This document shows positions 2,590 through 62,532 of a stretch of DNA of 64,000 nt, piece by piece. The notes under the pieces are model-generated. The model saw nothing but the letters and a program-made list of their open reading frames with translations. It did no database searches and was not told where the DNA came from. Numbering within the stretch: position 1 is the stretch's first letter; each line of letters opens with the position of its first letter. Made by a program: the position numbers and the translations under genes. The stretch is from Nitrososphaerota archaeon (lineage in GTDB: Archaea; Thermoproteota; Nitrososphaeria_A; Caldarchaeales; Calditenuaceae): assembly GCA_033581555.1 (NCBI GenBank), contig JAVQSZ010000004.1, positions 93,758-157,757 of the forward strand. The letters are read 5' to 3'.

Positions 2590-3375
2590 TCACGCGCCCT
2601 TCAGGTACTTCTCCTCGATTCCCTTGTACCCGACCCTCTCGAGCTCCTCGGCGAGCTCGTAGCCTCCGCTGACGATGATCCTCCCGTCGTACATGATGTG
2701 GACGTAATCAGGCCTCAGGTAGTTCAGGATCCTCGCGTAGTGTGTGATGACCAAGACGCCGACGTTCTCCCGCTCGACCATGCCCTTCACCGCAGCCGCG
2801 ACGACCTTGACGCCGTCGATGTCGAGGCCTGAGTCGGTCTCGTCGAGGACCGCGATCTTCGGCTTAAGGGTCAGCATCTGCACGATCTCGGACCTCTTCT
2901 TCTCACCGCCGGAGAAGCCCTCGTTCAGGTACCTCCTCGTGAAGGACTCGTCGAACTGGAGCGCCCTGAAGTTCTCGACGAGCGTCTTGTGGAACTGGGA
3001 GGGCGAGACCTTCTTCCCCTCATCGCCGTAGATCGAGAGGTAGGCCTTCCTGAGGAAGTTCGCCGTCGTGAGCCCCGTAATCTCCTGCGGGTACTGGAAC
3101 GCGAGGAAGAGCCCCCTCTTCGCCCTCTGGTCAGGCGTCAGGTCGAGGATGCTCTCGCCGTCGAGCCTGATGTCGCCGCCCTCGACCGTGTACTTCGGGT
3201 GGCCCATGATCACGTAGGCGGTCGTGCTCTTCCCGGACCCGTTCGGTCCCATCAGCGCGTGTATCTCGCCCTGAGACACGGTCAGGTTCAGGCCCTTGAT
3301 GATCTGCTTCCCCTCCACTCCAGCGTACAGGTCGACGATCTCCAGCCTCAAGCCTCTTTGCCCGGAACTCCCCAC
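2590..3375 (-). CDS. sufC: Fe-S cluster assembly ATPase SufC
   Basis: GPNGSGKS, AFQYP, NEGFSGGEKKR, LDETDSGLDID. Confidence 0.95.
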   Translation of the reverse strand: MGSSGQRGLRLEIVDLYAGVEGKQIIKGLNLTVSQGEIHALMGPNGSGKSTTAYVIMGHPKYTVEGGDIRLDGESILDLTPDQRAKRGLFLAFQYPQEITGLTTANFLRKAYLSIYGDEGKKVSPSQFHKTLVENFRALQFDESFTRRYLNEGFSGGEKKRSEIVQMLTLKPKIAVLDETDSGLDIDGVKVVAAAVKGMVERENVGVLVITHYARILNYLRPDYVHIMYDGRIIVSGGYELAEELERVGYKGIEEKYLKGA

Positions 3376-10733: not shown

Positions 10734-10829
10734 GGGGCCGTAGTCCAGCATGGAGTGGACGCCCGGCTAGCACGGAGGAGTGCCCGGACTGGGCCCGGGA
10801 GGTCGCCGGTTCAAATCCGGCCGGCCCCA
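10734..10829 (+). tRNA. tRNA-Pro(UGG) with 21-nt intron at non-canonical position 33/34 (10769-10789)
   Basis: Acceptor GGGGCCG/CGGCCCC-A, T-loop TTCAAAT; BHB CCGG-CT^A-GCAC...GTGC-CCGG-AC^T; splicing restores loop CT-TGG-GC. Confidence 0.9.
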
Positions 10830-18191: not shown

Positions 18192-18899
18192 CTACCACTT
18201 GCCGTTGTAGGCCTCGGAGAGCAGCCTCCTCTCGGAGAGGACCTCGTAGGGCCTCCCGACCGCGAAGACGCGCCTGTTGAGGAGCACGACCCTGTCGAAG
18301 GGCGTCGGGTCTGGGACGTGGTGCTCCGAGAGGAGAACGTGCTTCCCCTTACGCTTCTCCTCCTCGAGCGCCGAGATCACCGCCTCCTCGCTGGGCCTGT
18401 CGATCGACTCGAAGGGCTCGTCGAGTAGGTAGACGTCAGGGTCCTGAGCCAGCGCCCTCGCGATCAGCGCCCTCGCGAGCTGTCCACCGGAGAGCTCCGA
18501 GAGCCTCCTGTGCCTCAGCCCAGAGATCCCGACCCTCTCCGTCGCCTCGTCCGGGTCTGCCCTGAGGCCTCGCCCCCTCGCGATCTCCGAGCCCATCTCC
18601 ACCAGGTCCACCACCCTCAGCGGCGAGCCGAGCGCGATCGACCTCTGCTGCGGGACGTAAGCGACCCTCCTCCTGAGCGCCCTGTCGGACCAGGGGTCCG
18701 AGCCGAGGACCTCAACCCTCCCGCGGATGGGCCTCACTAGTCCCGCGAAGGCCTTGAGGAGCGTCGACTTGCCCGCGCCGTTCGGGCCCATCAGCAGCAC
18801 CATCTCGCCGGCCGCCCCCTCGAAGTTGACGCCCTCCAGAACCGCGTTCCCGTTGTAGCCCGCGTATAGGTCGACCGCCCTCACTAGGACCCCCGACAT
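18192..18899 (-). CDS. Metal ABC transporter ATPase (ZnuC/TroB-like)
   Basis: GPNGAGKST, YVPQ, LSGGQ, LLDEPF. Confidence 0.9.
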   Translation of the reverse strand: MSGVLVRAVDLYAGYNGNAVLEGVNFEGAAGEMVLLMGPNGAGKSTLLKAFAGLVRPIRGRVEVLGSDPWSDRALRRRVAYVPQQRSIALGSPLRVVDLVEMGSEIARGRGLRADPDEATERVGISGLRHRRLSELSGGQLARALIARALAQDPDVYLLDEPFESIDRPSEEAVISALEEEKRKGKHVLLSEHHVPDPTPFDRVVLLNRRVFAVGRPYEVLSERRLLSEAYNGKW

Positions 18900-18907
18900 C
18901 CTTTGGA

Positions 18908-18923
18908 GTTAACCATGGTTAAC
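18908..18923. promoter_or_regulatory. Perfect 16-bp palindrome GTTAACCATGGTTAAC, candidate metal-repressor operator
   Basis: 8 bp upstream of the metal ABC operon start codon, AT-rich in a GC-rich genome. Confidence 0.65.
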
Positions 18924-18987
18924 AATTTTAACCTTCCTTCACCTCCCACACAGCTCAGGGATAAATCGGGCGGCCGGGGATTTCTGA

Positions 18988-19052
18988 GCGCGGCGATGAC
19001 CGGTCAGGGTTACCGCGACCGAGTGAGCGGAGGGCGTTTGAGTGAGCCGCGC
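18988..19052 (+). ncRNA. Candidate C/D-box sRNA with guide complementary to 23S helix 69
   Basis: Terminal stem GCGCGGC/GCCGCGC, C-like GCGATGA, D'-like GCGA/CCGA, C'-like GTGAGCG, D-like GTGA; guide GGTCAGGGTTACC pairs 13 nt (one G-U) with 23S GGTAATCCTGACC at 60680-60692; ATAAAT about 25 nt upstream. Confidence 0.6.
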
Positions 19053-19115: not shown

Positions 19116-19802
19116 ATGCGTCTCGGTCTCGTGATCGGAGCGGTCATCGCGTTGACGTTACTGCTCGCGTTGTCGCCGGTCGCTCAAGCTTCGAGGCCGC
19201 TTCCGGGAACAAACTTCGCGAACGCGCCGTCGCTCAGGCCAGGCTCCTACACCTACGACCTCCAGCCCGGCGACCTCCACTTCTTCAGGGTCGACCTCGT
19301 CAAGGGCCAGACGATCTTCGTGGTGGTCAGGGTGCCGGTAGGCCAGGACTTCGACCTGATCCTGTTCTCGCCGGAGAGGGACCCGATAGAGCAGGGCGTG
19401 AGGCCGAGTGGGTTCTACGAGCGGGTCTCCTACAAGGCCGTCGCCTCAGGCCCCCACTACGTCGTGGTCTATCCATTCGGCCCGTCGAGGGGAGCCTACA
19501 CGCTTGAGATCTCGGTGCTCGACGAGCCCGCGGTGACGGTCACGGTCACCGCGACGGAGCTTAGGTACGTCACGGTGACGGTTCCGGGAGCGACCGTTAC
19601 CGCGCAGGTAGTGTCCTTCAGGACCGTGATGCTCGAGCCGAAGGACGTCGGGACCGAGGCCTGGGGCGCCATGGGGATGGGGCTGGTCGCGATCGGGCTG
19701 GTCGCGACGGCGCTCATCGTCCACGACTCCATCTCGAGGCTGAGGGGGTCTCCGGGCGCCGAGGCACGTCCGAGGCAGGAGGGAGGGGGTGAGGGAGGGT
19801 GA
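19116..19802 (+). CDS. Surface protein with PPC-like beta domain, Thr/Val linker and C-terminal TM anchor
   Basis: Signal peptide, DFDLILF, GPHYVVV, GAYTLEI, VTVTVTAT linker, TM helix. Confidence 0.65.
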   Translation: MRLGLVIGAVIALTLLLALSPVAQASRPLPGTNFANAPSLRPGSYTYDLQPGDLHFFRVDLVKGQTIFVVVRVPVGQDFDLILFSPERDPIEQGVRPSGFYERVSYKAVASGPHYVVVYPFGPSRGAYTLEISVLDEPAVTVTVTATELRYVTVTVPGATVTAQVVSFRTVMLEPKDVGTEAWGAMGMGLVAIGLVATALIVHDSISRLRGSPGAEARPRQEGGGEGG

Positions 19803-21823: not shown

Positions 21824-22120
21824 GGGGACGGGCAGCTGGGCGGGCTTCGGGGAGATCCCGGGGAAGTTCCTCCCTCCCACGGTGGGCCCGGTGCCGTGAG
21901 GCACGGGGGGAGACCTCCGGCAACGCCACAGAAACGATACCCCTCCGGCCGGATGCGGGCTGACGCGGGAGGTCCCGCCGACGACGGCCGGAGACCGGAT
22001 GAAACGGGCGTCCCGGGCGGAGAAAGTGGTCGGGGCCGTGAGCCCCACCGTCGAGCCCCGGAGCGACGAGAAGACGGATCCCGCCTAGAACAGAAGGAGG
22101 GCTACGGGCTGCCCGTCCCC
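21824..22120 (+). ncRNA. rnpB: Archaeal RNase P RNA
   Basis: P1 GGGGACGGGCAGC/GCTGCCCGTCCCC, P4 5' GGAAGTTCCTCC, ACAGAAAC, GAAACGG, 3' AACAGAAGGAGGGCTA. Confidence 0.92.
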
Positions 22121-43845: not shown

Positions 43846-43931
43846 GCCCCGGTAGCTCAGCGGGAGAGCGACCGGCTGAAGTCCTTCGGACAGAGACCGG
43901 TAGGTCGTGGGTTCAAGTCCCACCCGGGGCA
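43846..43931 (+). tRNA. tRNA-Phe(GAA) with 14-nt intron at 37/38 (43882-43895)
   Basis: GCCCCGG/CCGGGGC-A acceptor, ACCGG-CTGAAG^...^A-CCGGT anticodon arm, TTCAAGT T-loop. Confidence 0.9.
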
Positions 43932-58640: not shown

Positions 58641-58870
58641 CTTGGCCCGAGCAGGGGTACGCCGGCCGGTGGATGCCTCGGCTTGGGCGCCGAAGAAGGA
58701 CGTGGCAAGCTGCGATAAGCTCCGGGTACCCGCAGGCAGGGGTGGATCCGGAGATCTCCCAATGGGACCTCCTGCGGTGGGCTTCGGCTCGCCGCGTTCC
58801 CGGGCTCAAGCCTGGGATCGGGGACCCCCCGAACGGAAGCATCCAAGTAGGGGGAGGAGGAGAAATCAAA

Positions 58871-58904
<34 letters not shown>

Positions 58905-60694
58905 GCAGCCCAAACCGAACCCCCTGGGGAAACTCAGGGGGAATGTGGGGTTATGGGCCGGAGGCCCGCCCTGAAGACCGAGCCGAACTCCCCTGGAATG
59001 GGGGGCCAAAGAGGGTGAAAGCCCCGTAGGCGAAGGTCGGATGGGCGATGCTCTGGACCCAGAGTACCGCACCTCGGATATGGTGCGGGAAGTCGGGGGC
59101 CACTGGCCTCCAAGGCTAAATACGTCCCAAGACCGATAGCGGACCAGTAGCGTGAGCGAAAGGTGAAAAGTACCCCGGGAGGGGGGTGAAAAGCGCCTGA
59201 AACCGGCCGGTAACAGACGTGGGCGGCCCGAAAGGGAAATCCCCGTCAAGGCCTCGATGAGGGGCCGCGCGGGGACAATCCCAGGGTCGCCCGCTCCGTC
59301 TTGAAACACGGGCCGGGGAGTTCACGGGTGTGGCGAGTCTAAGGGTGAAAGCCCGAAGGCGTAGGGAAACCGACGTGCCCGCGGCGGCCTTGAGCCGCGA
59401 GGGGCGGGGTCCGAAAGGGCCTGTAGCCACGCCCGTGAGGCTAGAAACCGGGCGATCTAGCCCTGGGCAGGGTGAAGCCGGGGGAAACCCCGGTCGAGGC
59501 CCGAATAGGGGTCCTGACGTGCAATTCGGTCCCCTGACCTGGGGCTAGGAGTCAAAAGCTAACCGAGCCCGGTGATAGCTAGTTCCCCCCGAAGTGTCTC
59601 GCAGGACAGCCTCGGGGGAGGTTGCCTGCGGGGTAGGGCACTGATGGGGGAGAAAGGGGCCGGCGAGGCCCCGCTCTCCTTTCAAACTACGAACCCGCGG
59701 GCGCCGTAGATCCCGGGAGTGGGGTACCGGGGGTAAGCTCCGGGACCGAGAGGGGAACAACCCAGACCCCGGGTTAAGGCCCCGAAGTGCCCGCTAAGTG
59801 ACAAACCGAAGGGCGTCTCCACCCTGAGACAGCGGGGCCGTAGGCTTAGAAGCAGCCATCGGCTAAGAAGTGCGTAACAGCTTACCCGCCGAGGGTGGGG
59901 GCCCCGAAAATTGACGGGTCTAAGCGGGCCGCCGAAACCCGGGCTCACCCGCGCCGTGCGCGGGCGGGGGTAGGGGGGCGTGGCGGTCGGGCGGAAGCGG
60001 GGCCGTGAGGTCCCGTGGACCGGTCGCCAATGTAGATCCCGGTGGTAGTAGACAGCGAAGAGGGGTGGGAATCCCCTCCGCCGGAAGGGCACGGGTTCCC
60101 CGGCAATGCGTCGTCAGCCGGGGGTAAGCCGGTCCTAAGGCCGACCTTAACCGGGTAGGCCGAAGGGGAAGCCGGTTAAGATTCCGGCGCCTCCCGGGTA
60201 GTCGCGGCGACGCAAGCCGGGCCCCTGACGCTTCGGGGTAGGCTGACCGGGGCCGTAGCTCCGGCCAAGCGCTGAAGCCTGGGGAGTGCCGTAAAGGCGA
60301 GAACCAGGTGAAGGCGCGACGGGGCGGCGTATGCCGCTTCGGTCGATCCCTGGAGCCCGTGAAAAGGGGGTCCGGTTCGATCCCGGGAGACCGTACCTAG
60401 ATCCGACACTGGTGCCCCTGGCTGAGAAGGCCAAGGCGTCTGGGGTGACTCCGGGCCAGGGAACTCGGCAAATTAGCCCCGTAACCTCGGGAGAAGGGGT
60501 GCCTGCTTTCCTCTCCGACGAGGAGGGGTTGGCAGGTCGCAGTGACAAGGGGGTCCTGACTGTTTAATAAAAACATAGGAAGCCGCGAGGCCGAAAGGCT
60601 TCGAACGGCTTCTGAATCCTGGCCAGCACCGGTACCTGAAACCCGGGTCCAACCGGGATAAGGGCCGGCTAGCGCCGGGGGTAATCCTGACCCT

Positions 60695-61517
60695 CGGGTA
60701 AGGGGGTCGTTAAACGCGGCTGTATGCGGGGAAGGGGGAGGTCCTGGATACCCTCGGGGTAACAACTCCATGACCGGTGATCCCGACCCGCAGGAAACCG
60801 CCCCGTGAACGGCTAATACCGGACGTCGCTCAGACAACTCGGTGACCCTCGCCTACCTGATCGGCGTCATGCTCGGAGACGGCGGCGTCTACGGCAACTA
60901 TTACACCGTCTTCTGCAGGGACCAGTCCTTTGAGTTCGTCGAATACGTCGCCCGACTCGTGGAGGAACTCTTCGGGATAAGGCCGAACGTGAGGAGGGCA
61001 GGCTCGAATAACTACGTCGCCTCGACGAACGTCCGCTGGGTCCACAACTTCCTTCTGAGGATAGGGTTCCCGAAGGGGCGGAAGCTCGTCAACGCCGAGA
61101 TACCGCCGCTCTTCAGGGAAAGCCTGGACGTCGTCAGGGGGCTCTTCGACACCGAGGGCTACGTCGGGGTCGACGTTCAGCGGCACGGCGAGAGAGAGTA
61201 TCGGTACCCATACGTCGGTTTCGACGCGATCGCGAGACCCCTCGTCGTCCAATCGCACCACATCCTCTCCGCCAACGGGATCCAGTCCACCTACTCCCTG
61301 AAACGACCTCATGCGTGGGGGAAACACCAGCAGTGGAGGCTGCAGGTCAAGGGATGGGAGAACGTGGAGCTGTTCCGCGAGAAGGTAGGGTTCAGGCATC
61401 CCGTCAAGGCGGCAAGGATCGAGCAGATTTTGCGTGAGGGCGGGATCCTCAGAGACCATACGCCGCGCACCCGTCAGGGGTGATGATATGGTCCACCACC
61501 AACTCCTGTTGGTGGAG
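60695..61517 (+). mobile_element. Group I self-splicing intron at 23S position ~L1923 (823 nt)
   Basis: 5' exon ends in U paired to G in P1 (GACCCU/GGGGUC); P10 UAAG/CUUA; P3 CGCGGC/GCCGCG; P4 UGCGGG/CCCGCA; R CAGAGACCA and S GAUAUGGUCC (P7 GACCA/UGGUC); P8 and P9 hairpins; terminal G. Confidence 0.9.
60842..61483 (+). CDS. Intron-encoded double-motif LAGLIDADG homing endonuclease
   Basis: LAYLIGVMLGDGGV and VVRGLFDTEGYV motifs; VGFRHPVK tail. Confidence 0.92.
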   Translation: MTLAYLIGVMLGDGGVYGNYYTVFCRDQSFEFVEYVARLVEELFGIRPNVRRAGSNNYVASTNVRWVHNFLLRIGFPKGRKLVNAEIPPLFRESLDVVRGLFDTEGYVGVDVQRHGEREYRYPYVGFDAIARPLVVQSHHILSANGIQSTYSLKRPHAWGKHQQWRLQVKGWENVELFREKVGFRHPVKAARIEQILREGGILRDHTPRTRQG

Positions 61518-61823
61518 CTTAAGGTAGCCAAATGCCTTGTCGGGTAAGTTCCGACGCGCATGAATGGATCAACGAGGGCCCCACTGTCCCGGCCCGGAGC
61601 CCCGTGAACCCACGTAACGTGGACGAACAGTCCACGAGCCCCCAGCGGGGAGAGAAGACCCTGTGGAGCTTTACTGCAGCCTGTCGCTGCGGGACGGCTC
61701 TGGGTGCATAGCGTAGCCGGGAGCCGTCGATCCGGACCTCTCCGGGGGTCCGGGGAGGCGCCAATGTAACACCGGCCACCTGGGGCTGTCCCGCTAACCG
61801 GGGCCTGTGCCCTGGGACAACGG

Positions 61824-61854
<31 letters not shown>

Positions 61855-62532
61855 CCCGAAAAGATATCGGGGGAGCCCAAAGGTCGGCTCAAGCGGGACA
61901 GAAACCCGCTGTAGAGTGCAAGGGCAAAAGCCGGCCTGACAGGACCCTCGAACGCAAGGGGTCCTGAGGGGAAACCCGGGCCTAGCGATCCATCGGCCCC
62001 TACCAGTGGGGGCCGGTGGTGACAGAAAAGTTACCCCAGGGATAACAGGCTCGTCGCGGGCGAGAGTCCCCATCGACCCCGCGGCTTGGTACCTCGATGT
62101 CGGCTCTTCCCATCCTGGCCTCGCAGCAGGGGCCAAGGGTGAGGCTGCTCGCCTATCAAAGGGGAACGTGAGCTGGGTTTAGACCGGCGTGAGCCAGGTC
62201 GGATTCTACCTGCTGGGGGTGCGGGCCGCCTGAGGGTAGGGCCCTCCTAGTACGAGAGGAACGGAGGGCCGGGGCCAACGGTGTACCGGTCGTCCTACAG
62301 GGCGACGCCGGGCAGCCGCGCCCCTGGGGATAAGGGCTGAAAGCATCTAAGCCCGAAGCCACTCCCAAAAATAGGCGGCCGATCGGGGCCTATAGGGCCC
62401 GGTAACGGGCCTTGGGCCCCGACGAGGGCTCCCCTAGAAGAGGGGGTTGATGGGGTGGGCGTGTAAGGGCGGAGGCGTACGCCGGACGCCCTCAGCGCGC
62501 CGCTCCCAATCGCCCGAGCTGCTCGGATCCCA

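Follow-up and report, generated by a model that had tools for sequence, protein, structure and literature searches.

The 65-nucleotide (nt) element at 18988-19052 of a 64,000-nt stretch of contig JAVQSZ010000004.1, from a Nitrososphaerota archaeon of the order Caldarchaeales, is in all likelihood the gene of a housekeeping box C/D small RNA (sRNA) that carries two guides, both complementary to 23S ribosomal RNA (rRNA), and its juxtaposition with a group I intron in the 23S rRNA gene is most simply read as incidental. The whole stretch is called the window below; all coordinates are positions in it, on the forward strand unless marked. An initial annotation of this DNA had proposed a C/D-like sRNA at this position, and that identity is supported by the architecture of the element, by covariation and by conservation across the order and the phylum.

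The element lies on the plus strand in a gap of 216 base pairs (bp) between divergent open reading frames (ORFs). Its intergenic position, its 7-bp terminal stem, the box-like motifs and the upstream ATAAAT, as first described, are all present in the sequence. Its parts, together with the spacing found in 55 aligned members of the family, are as follows; the bit scores refer to two covariance models, R1 and R2, introduced below.

18961-18966, plus strand: TATA-like box ATAAAT, its centre about 26 nt 5′ of the start of the conserved stem
18988-19052, plus strand: box C/D sRNA gene, putative double guide, with the conserved core at 18990-19050; 89.9 bits with R1, 66 bits with R2
18990-18994, plus strand: 5′ strand of the terminal stem, GCGGC, pairing with 19046-19050
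18995-18997, plus strand: kink-turn (k-turn) bulge GAU (L1-L3), 3 nt in 55 of 55 members
18996-19002, plus strand: C box AUGACCG; family consensus RUGA(U/A/C)(G/C)N
19003-19014, plus strand: D′ guide, 12 nt, GUCAGGGUUACC; C-to-D′ spacer of 12 nt in 55 of 55 members
19015-19018, plus strand: D′ box GCGA; NNGA is conserved in the family, and positions 1-2 covary with C′ positions 6-5
19019-19022, plus strand: variable D′-C′ loop CCGA; sequence and length vary, with 3 or 4 nt in 44 of 55 members
19023-19029, plus strand: C′ box GUGAGCG; RUGA is conserved, and the box forms a kink-loop (k-loop) with D′
19030-19041, plus strand: D guide, 12 nt, GAGGGCGUUUGA, with the family core AAGGCAUUUG; C′-to-D spacer of 12 nt in 54 of 55 members
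19042-19045, plus strand: D box GUGA, the sole GUGA among the 55 members
19046-19050, plus strand: 3′ strand of the terminal stem, GCCGC, pairing with 18990-18994

The terminal stem measures 7 bp in this genome (18988-94 with 19046-52), of which only five pairs are conserved in the family. It abuts the bulge, beyond which lie two tandem G.A pairs, G18998.A19045 and A18999.G19044; C19000 then faces U19043, and a Watson-Crick pair, C19001-G19042, joins position 6 of the C box to position 1 of the D box. The C box is spelled AUGAAGA in 19 of the 55 members, GUGAUGU in 12 and, in its canonical form, AUGAUGA in three, while the D box reads CUGA in 41, CGGA in seven, GAGA in three, CCGA in two, and GUGA (the window) and CAGA in one each. 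The invariant UGA of the C box and GA of the D box are both kept in the window element. The 7-nt frame GCGAUGA, 3 nt further 5′, was rejected as the C box because it would do away with the k-turn bulge and lengthen the spacers to 15 nt. The minimum free energy (MFE) structure of the single sequence differs from the k-turn/k-loop structure and was not adopted. Upstream, the TATA-like box keeps the form (A/T)TAA(A/G)T at the same distance in five of five genus members, and the adjoining bases vary. Archaeal TATA boxes usually lie at about -26/-27, with which the spacing of ATAAAT is compatible, and the sRNA is probably driven by a TATA-type promoter of its own.

Among genus members the flanks diverge much more than the element itself does, and matches to the element are found in four of the six other genomes by BLAST and in five of the six by covariance model. 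The first model (R1), built from five genus sequences, matches over its full length in 74 of the 76 genomes of the order, among them all 43 of high quality and members of all 15 genera; every matching genome of the order has a single copy except G066, which has two. The second model (R2), built from 55 members, recovers the family from an even sample of the phylum in 87 of the 151 genomes, which represent 46 of the 77 genera sampled. Neighbouring genes are common to genus members only (6 of 42 loci), from which we conclude that the element is a gene of its own and not a leader of its neighbours. A search of the sRNA region against Rfam at E ≤ 10 returned no known family, the sole match being a chance CRISPR (clustered regularly interspaced short palindromic repeats) repeat at E = 6.

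Base pairing is maintained through sequence change across the family. When the 55 members are aligned (53 distinct rows), standard pairs take up 90.0% of the cells, against 78.2% after shuffling; neither this fraction nor the observed covariation score was attained in any of 500 shuffles, and slid controls gave 24-51%. Over the 53 rows, stem pair 4/92 of alignment A4 is CG in 32, UA in 16, AU and UG in one each, and unpaired in three, and the pair between C-box position 6 and D-box position 1 (17/85 of A4) is GC in 48, CG in four and something else in one. At the D′/C′ pairs 31/70 and 32/69 of A4 both sides have changed in 16 and 15 rows, respectively, and the k-loop helix is 73% paired.

The D′ guide is complementary to the loop of helix 69. 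Positions 19002-14 (GGUCAGGGUUACC) pair with 23S positions 60680-60692 (GGUAAUCCUGACC) over 13 positions, 12 of them Watson-Crick and the other G19009.U60685; the 12-nt guide itself is complementary to 60680-60691, and G19002 supplies the 13th pair. This pairing was part of the initial annotation, which had it ending 2 nt short of a splice site and covering the GACC of the P1 hairpin of a group I intron, and all of this is confirmed.

60680-60692, plus strand: D′ target, the helix 69 loop and adjoining stem bases, with the predicted 2′-O-methyl site at A60684

U19010, the fifth base upstream of D′, forms a Watson-Crick pair with A60684, which would be about the equivalent of E. coli A1913; this numbering is compatible with the intron site name L1923 in Table 1 of PMC6125680. 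The proposal that D′ = GCGA would direct the sRNA to the A1913 equivalent under the N+5 rule is accordingly retained as the predicted target. The other target put forward, G1909 with D′ = CCGA, was rejected, since CCGA falls in the variable D′-C′ loop; nor does the haloarchaeal Gm1950 with which it had been equated lie in helix 69, the Haloarcula marismortui Gm1950 being listed as E. coli G2251 in Table 1 of PMC11542601.

The score of the D′ guide was matched anywhere in mature 23S rRNA by five of 5000 shuffles of the 12-nt guide. A contiguous duplex of 8-15 bp between the D′ guide and the helix 69 loop can be formed in all 39 genomes of the order in which both sequences are available. In the window genus the loop reads GUAAUCCUGA (GUAACCCUGA in genome G003) and the guide UCAGGAUUAC or UCAGGGUUAC, that is, UCAGG(A/G)UUAC; in the other 35 genomes of the order the loop is GUAACUCUGA and the guide UCAGAGUUAC. 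The ancestral guide core would score just 6.5 on the 23S rRNA of this genome. A further form of the D′ guide, UCAAAGUUAC, occurs at loci L112-L116, L118, L120 and L123, in other families of the phylum.

The D guide has a target of its own in exon 2, which the initial annotation overlooked. Positions 19031-19040 pair with 23S positions 61538-61529 through eight Watson-Crick and two G.U pairs.

61529-61538, plus strand: D target CAAAUGCCUU in exon 2, beginning 11 nt past the 3′ splice site, with the predicted 2′-O-methyl site at A61532

U19037, the fifth base upstream of D, is in a Watson-Crick pair with A61532, which is presumably about E. coli A1938. Yeast Am2256 and Am2281, which owe their 2′-O-methyl groups to box C/D RNPs, would be equivalent to A1913 and A1938. 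A D guide duplex of 7-15 bp with CAAAUGCCUU is present in 37 of 37 genomes of the order that have both sequences, and the family core AAGGCAUUUG has a single perfect complement in 23S rRNA and none in 16S rRNA. The D′ and D targets are 25 nt apart in mature rRNA. The D guide of the window can also pair with CGGACGCCCUC at 62482-62492 over 11 contiguous pairs (nine Watson-Crick and two G.U), with a U-A pair at the fifth position; this match is probably due to chance, and it is unconserved because the 5′ part of the D guide varies in relatives.

Between the two targets the 23S rRNA gene is interrupted by a group I intron, whose parts are:

58644-62529, plus strand: 23S rRNA gene, about 900 nt longer than the Rfam model
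60695-61517, plus strand: putative group I intron of 823 nt, inserted after U60694 (= L1923) and ending in omega-G 61517
60689-60708, plus strand: P1 hairpin, exon GACCCU (60689-94) with the internal guide GGGGUC (60703-08), and U60694.G60703 at the splice site
60716-60803, plus strand: 5′ half of the ribozyme core, with the 5′ strand of P3 (60716-25), the 5′ strand of P4, UGCGGG (60725-30), the P5 extension, the 3′ strand of P4, CCCGCA (60787-92), and the 5′ strand of P6 (60792-95 and 60798-803)
60842-61483, plus strand: LAGLIDADG homing-endonuclease ORF of 213 amino acids from GTG, in the P6 loop (PF14528, E = 7.1e-13)
61438-61517, plus strand: 3′ half of the ribozyme core, with the 3′ strand of P6 (61438-43 and 61446-49), the 5′ strand of P7, GACCA (61454-58), the 3′ strand of P3 (61458-66), P8 (61468-72 with 61478-82), J8/7, the 3′ strand of P7, UGGUC (61489-93), P9 (61496-503 with 61508-15) and omega-G 61517

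The names of helices P3-P9 were assigned by hand from the group I consensus (P, Q, R and S elements). Two intron-free relatives, G001 and G005, read GACCCUCUUAAGG across the site, which fixes the insertion at 60695-61517 with an ambiguity of one base. A P10 helix is possible between UAAG (60699-702) and CUUA of exon 2 (61518-21). The intron set of the order comprises 14 full and two truncated homologues, and 13 of the 14 could be parsed for helices, the anchor having failed in G040. All 14 full introns end in omega-G. P3, which is joined across the ORF over more than 650 nt, occurs in the three compensating variants GCGGC/GCCGC, GUGGC/GCCAC and CCGGC/GCCGG; P6, P8 and P9 covary among the 13 parsed introns, and P4 and P7 are invariant. 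When species genomes were scanned for the P1 signature with all four combinations allowed at its third position, an exon C or U was always met by an internal-guide G or A (34 of 34 contigs). These data identify 60695-61517 as a genuine group I intron with predicted self-splicing, which confirms and extends the archaeal introns at L1923. The initial annotation had placed a group I intron here with P1 on GACCCU (60689-94), and this finds support in P1, P10, omega-G and the covarying core. By its site, its lineage and the hand-drawn helices the intron is IB4-like.

The 34 contigs with the P1/internal-guide signature (L125-L158) have titles that name Nitrosocaldus, Caldarchaeales/Calditenuis, Aigarchaeota, Bathyarchaeia, Brockarchaeota, Hadarchaeia and metagenome-assembled genomes (MAGs) labelled ‘Sulfolobales’, with intron lengths of 741-1132 nt where both ends were found. 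One of them (L127), a contig of 3247 bp titled as an Actinomycetota bacterium MAG, carries an archaeal-type helix 69 together with a group I intron and has probably been mis-binned. The product of the LAGLIDADG ORF gave a sole, weak match in the PDB, to 2dch_X, ‘putative homing endonuclease’ (E = 0.0082). The end of this ORF overlaps the 3′ strand of P6, P7, the 3′ strand of P3 and P8, of which its final 11 or so codons (..LRDHTPRTRQG, 61450-61483) overlap P7, the 3′ strand of P3 and P8; this protein tail is conserved in relatives, probably through constraint on the RNA.

The distribution of the sRNA is independent of that of the intron. Among the 40 genomes of the order in which this 23S segment is assembled, 16 have the group I intron, 18 have no insertion and six have a different insertion, and the sRNA occurs in all three groups; boxes and guide are conserved in relatives with and without the intron, and G001 and G005, which belong to the genus of the window, possess the sRNA but lack the intron. 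The different insertion, a small one, follows CUCUUAA at a point 4 nt beyond the group I site and starts with CGGG, its exon anchors being 65-584 nt apart. It is carried by G029, G031, G034, G037, G063 and G064 (L055, L065, L095, L094, L067 and L066, respectively) and also by G084 and G112 (L159 and L163). PMC2602781 describes a bulge-helix-bulge-type intron family, Vdi141.L1927 of Vulcanisaeta, at this downstream site. With group I introns at L1923 and an insertion at an L1927-type site, two kinds of intron occupy neighbouring sites in one order.

The D′ guide duplex covers GACC (60689-92), part of the 5′ strand of P1. This overlap amounts to 4 nt in the present genome and to 2 nt for the conserved guide core (UCAG..UUAC). 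In 15 genomes that carry the group I intron the duplex stops 2-4 nt from the splice site, compared with 0-5 nt in 24 others. At 37 °C the computed energies are -21.9 kcal/mol for the 13-bp guide duplex, -11.7 for P1 and -6.9 for the helix 69 hairpin; at 75 °C they are -9.3 for the guide duplex and -2.3 for P1. In the local fold of the precursor rRNA, P1 displaces the stem of helix 69 and leaves 60680-88, including A60684, free, and these nine nucleotides can still form nine pairs with the guide (-11.4 kcal/mol), so that guide binding and P1 are not strictly exclusive. The suggestion that the two exclude each other thus survives as a competition for 4 nt in this genome and fails for the nine target nucleotides that stay free with P1 formed. 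In intron-bearing cells generally, the modelled competition between guide and P1 for 2-4 nt would be real. Competition with local rRNA structure, helix 69 included, is common to every guide, and as far as the sequences go neither the sRNA nor the intron shows adaptation to the other.

Several observations weigh against the reading of the element as a double guide that merely happens to adjoin a group I intron. The boxes of the window element are off consensus, AUGACCG agreeing with RUGAUGA at four of seven positions and GUGA with CUGA at three of four; we attribute this to the window genus having flipped to C-G where the sixth base of the C box pairs with the first of the D box. The fitting of alignments A3-A5 to the model biases them towards its structure, and the related sequences in them are not independent. 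The covariation between guide and target is, on the sequences compared, one compensatory event in one lineage: a second, independent case was sought and not found, the guide UCAAAGUUAC facing a helix 69 that still reads GUAACUCUGA in five of five genomes checked from three other families. In all five this guide leaves an uncompensated A.C mismatch opposite C1916. The D guide of the window is not significant by itself, 220 of 5000 shuffles scoring equally, and its alternative match at 62482-62492 (mature positions 3016-3026), close to where the 23S rRNA ends, is genome-specific and just as good. In 268 of 5000 trials two shuffled guides both scored at least 8 at sites no more than 100 nt apart, which means that the case for the D target rests on conservation and not on this genome alone. 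As for the intron, the Rfam model RF00028 gave no match at its gathering score, nor at E ≤ 10 on 60600-61600; we discount this silence as evidence against a group I intron because PMC6125680 reports the same blindness, RF00028 having detected none of 39 archaeal group I introns that were found by subgroup models. Finally, the missing co-adaptation leaves room for a kinetic interplay, and ordering or cooperation during ribosome assembly is possible.

Could either partner be something other than we suppose? We give hardly any credence to the idea that the element is not an sRNA at all, being instead a cis-acting hairpin (a leader, an attenuator or a protein-binding site) or a chance likeness. 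The isolated 65-mer does fold only weakly better than its shuffles (z = -1.77, with 12 of 200 folding as well), no Rfam family covers the region and the boxes depart from consensus; against this, the element is conserved in the order and in much of the phylum beside differing neighbour genes, its covariation fits the k-turn and k-loop and not the MFE fold, and each of its 12-nt spacers can pair with one of two neighbouring sites in rRNA. It is likewise highly improbable that the 23S insertion is a bulge-helix-bulge intron cut by the tRNA (transfer RNA) splicing endonuclease, which would make P1 irrelevant. That is the usual type for archaeal rRNA introns with LAGLIDADG genes, the Rfam group I model is silent, and the Vdi141.L1927 family sits only 4 nt downstream (PMC2602781), where six of the 40 relatives have an insertion. 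The group I hallmarks are, however, all present and covarying, PMC6125680 lists in its Table 1 an IB4 intron of the same length class at LSU/1923 (LSU, large subunit) for Aigarchaeota, and the motif itself is missing: at both possible junction registers the 4 nt before each cleavage site are unpaired when drawn by hand, and a cofold of the junction does not contain it.

The remaining explanations accept both partners and link them. The initial annotation had suggested a specific interplay in which pairing of the sRNA ribonucleoprotein (sRNP) and formation of P1 exclude each other and so may order methylation and self-splicing, the host guide controlling or timing the mobile intron or the reverse. 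Guide and P1 do share GACC (60689-92) in this genome, and the full 13-bp duplex is computed to be more stable than P1, so that a fully bound sRNP would block it. Such coupling is nevertheless unlikely and the specific form of the claim is not upheld, given that the sRNA is there regardless of the intron, that the guide reaches equally far with or without it, that the conserved guide core overlaps P1 by just 2 nt, that 60680-88 with A60684 stays pairable when P1 has formed, and that any guide competes with local rRNA structure. A double guide might instead bridge the exons, tethering them across the 823-nt intron, with P1 leaving the helix 69 loop unpaired for the guide, to mutual benefit. The targets flank the insertion site at distances of 2 nt from the 5′ splice site and 11 nt from the 3′ one, the loop is open in the local fold in which P1 displaces the helix 69 stem, and PMC4644070 proposes a chaperone role for double guides; this geometry, however, follows from an intron landing between two pre-existing targets 25 nt apart, there is no co-adaptation, and the intron is missing from most genomes that bear the sRNA, all of which makes the bridging scheme very unlikely. 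Related to both is the thought, which we consider quite unlikely, that intron-bearing lineages have co-opted an ancient sRNP as a trans-acting splicing chaperone or brake of the ribozyme. P1 would then hold the helix 69 loop unfolded such that A1913 is methylated before splicing, and an sRNP holding exon 1 and exon 2 would tether the exons and time or assist their ligation.

We return, then, to a housekeeping double guide. From sequence we infer that the sRNA is transcribed, bound by protein and active in methylation, and that the intron splices itself. The sRNA would assemble with L7Ae, Nop5 and fibrillarin; its D′ guide, on the helix 69 loop, would direct 2′-O-methylation of A60684, and its D guide, 25 nt further along the mature rRNA, that of A61532. 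By holding both strands at once it would probably also aid the folding of this part of domain IV, as has been proposed for archaeal double guides. The mobile intron with its LAGLIDADG endonuclease would have inserted exactly between the two guide targets. We consider the juxtaposition incidental because homing endonucleases and methylation guides alike target rRNA where it is most conserved and central to function. Judged from their distributions, the intron is far younger than the sRNA and much less widespread.

In thermophilic archaea helices 68-71 are a reported hotspot of methylation, where predicted sites crowd around E. coli A1912 (PMC4644070, PMC7994747), and exact archaeal methylation sites are reported to be generally not conserved outside the genus (PMC6009581). 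The window sRNA resembles the archaeal double guides for this hotspot in Dennis et al. 2015 (PMC4644070) and Lui et al. 2018 (PMC6009581) in its length of about 65 nt, its C/D and C′/D′ boxes, its 12-nt guides and its targets less than 100 nt apart; like them it has a helix 69 loop target beside A1912, and a chaperone role has been proposed for such pairs. Unlike the double guides as presented in those papers, this family keeps both sites in 46 of the 77 sampled genera of the phylum, and the C and D boxes of the window are unusually degenerate, with the compensating C-G flip. In yeast, snR63 is documented as the guide for Am2256 and snR13 as that for Am2280/Am2281, and both have counterparts in plants and in human (PMC5199042, PMC11542601). 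There two separate small nucleolar RNAs (snoRNAs) serve the two sites, whereas both guides of the window are on one RNA; the likeness drawn here is one between sites. The sRNA thus appears, from sequence comparison, to be a further archaeal double guide, unusual in the phylum-wide conservation of its sites and in their apparent overlap with eukaryotic ones.

For the intron the closest parallel is the set of IB4 group I introns at LSU/1923 recorded for Aigarchaeota and Thaumarchaeota by Nawrocki, Jones and Eddy in 2018 (PMC6125680). The window intron shares with these, as reported there, the site after E. coli U1923, the 23S host gene, a LAGLIDADG ORF, the P3/P7 pseudoknot and the failure to match RF00028; set against that account, what can be added for the window intron is an ORF placed in P6 and an ORF 3′ end that overlaps the ribozyme core. 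A meeting of a guide with an intron of its target RNA has one described archaeal example: the intron of the Haloferax and Pyrococcus tRNA-Trp precursor holds a box C/D guide, and methylation and splicing are ordered (cited in PMC7994747). In that case the guide is the bulge-helix-bulge intron itself and acts on its own exons. The window guide, unlike that of tRNA-Trp, is encoded outside the intron, 41.6 kb away on the same strand (19052 versus 60695), and predates the ribozyme intron. A narrow literature search, mostly of titles and abstracts, turned up no description of interplay between a host guide and a mobile ribozyme; PMC8527467 concerns interference of snoRNAs with Cas9.

The genes on either side of the sRNA are:

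18192-18899, minus strand: ABC-type ATPase ORF (Pfam PF00005)
19116-19802, plus strand: ORF of 228 amino acids with no Pfam match

A perfect palindrome of 16 bp, GTTAACCATGGTTAAC, directly precedes the minus-strand ABC ATPase gene at 18908-18923 and is largely conserved in the genus; standing beside an A/T-rich box, it looks like a regulator-binding site. An archaeal RNase P RNA lies at 21828-22116 (RF00373, 151.5 bits), 2.8 kb downstream of the sRNA. No 16S rRNA gene is present in the 58 kb upstream of the 23S rRNA gene, and as the sole 16S match is on another contig (G000 C5, 42712-44201; L124), this genome may have unlinked rRNA genes. Two tRNA matches, at 10734-10829 and 43846-43931, span 96 and 86 nt compared with the 71 positions of the model, and these tRNAs probably contain introns.

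What the analysis adds for a thermophilic Nitrososphaeria (‘Aigarchaeota’-type) lineage is a well-supported family of box C/D sRNAs, deeply conserved and described by a covariance model. Related genomes with the same guide, with or without the intron, form a natural set in which interference between a guide RNP and self-splicing could be studied, such interference being just an idea at present. The same two adenosines appear to be targeted across much of the phylum and to match eukaryotic sites (Am2256 and Am2281 in yeast), which argues that methylation of helix 69 and of the strand that follows it is ancient and important.

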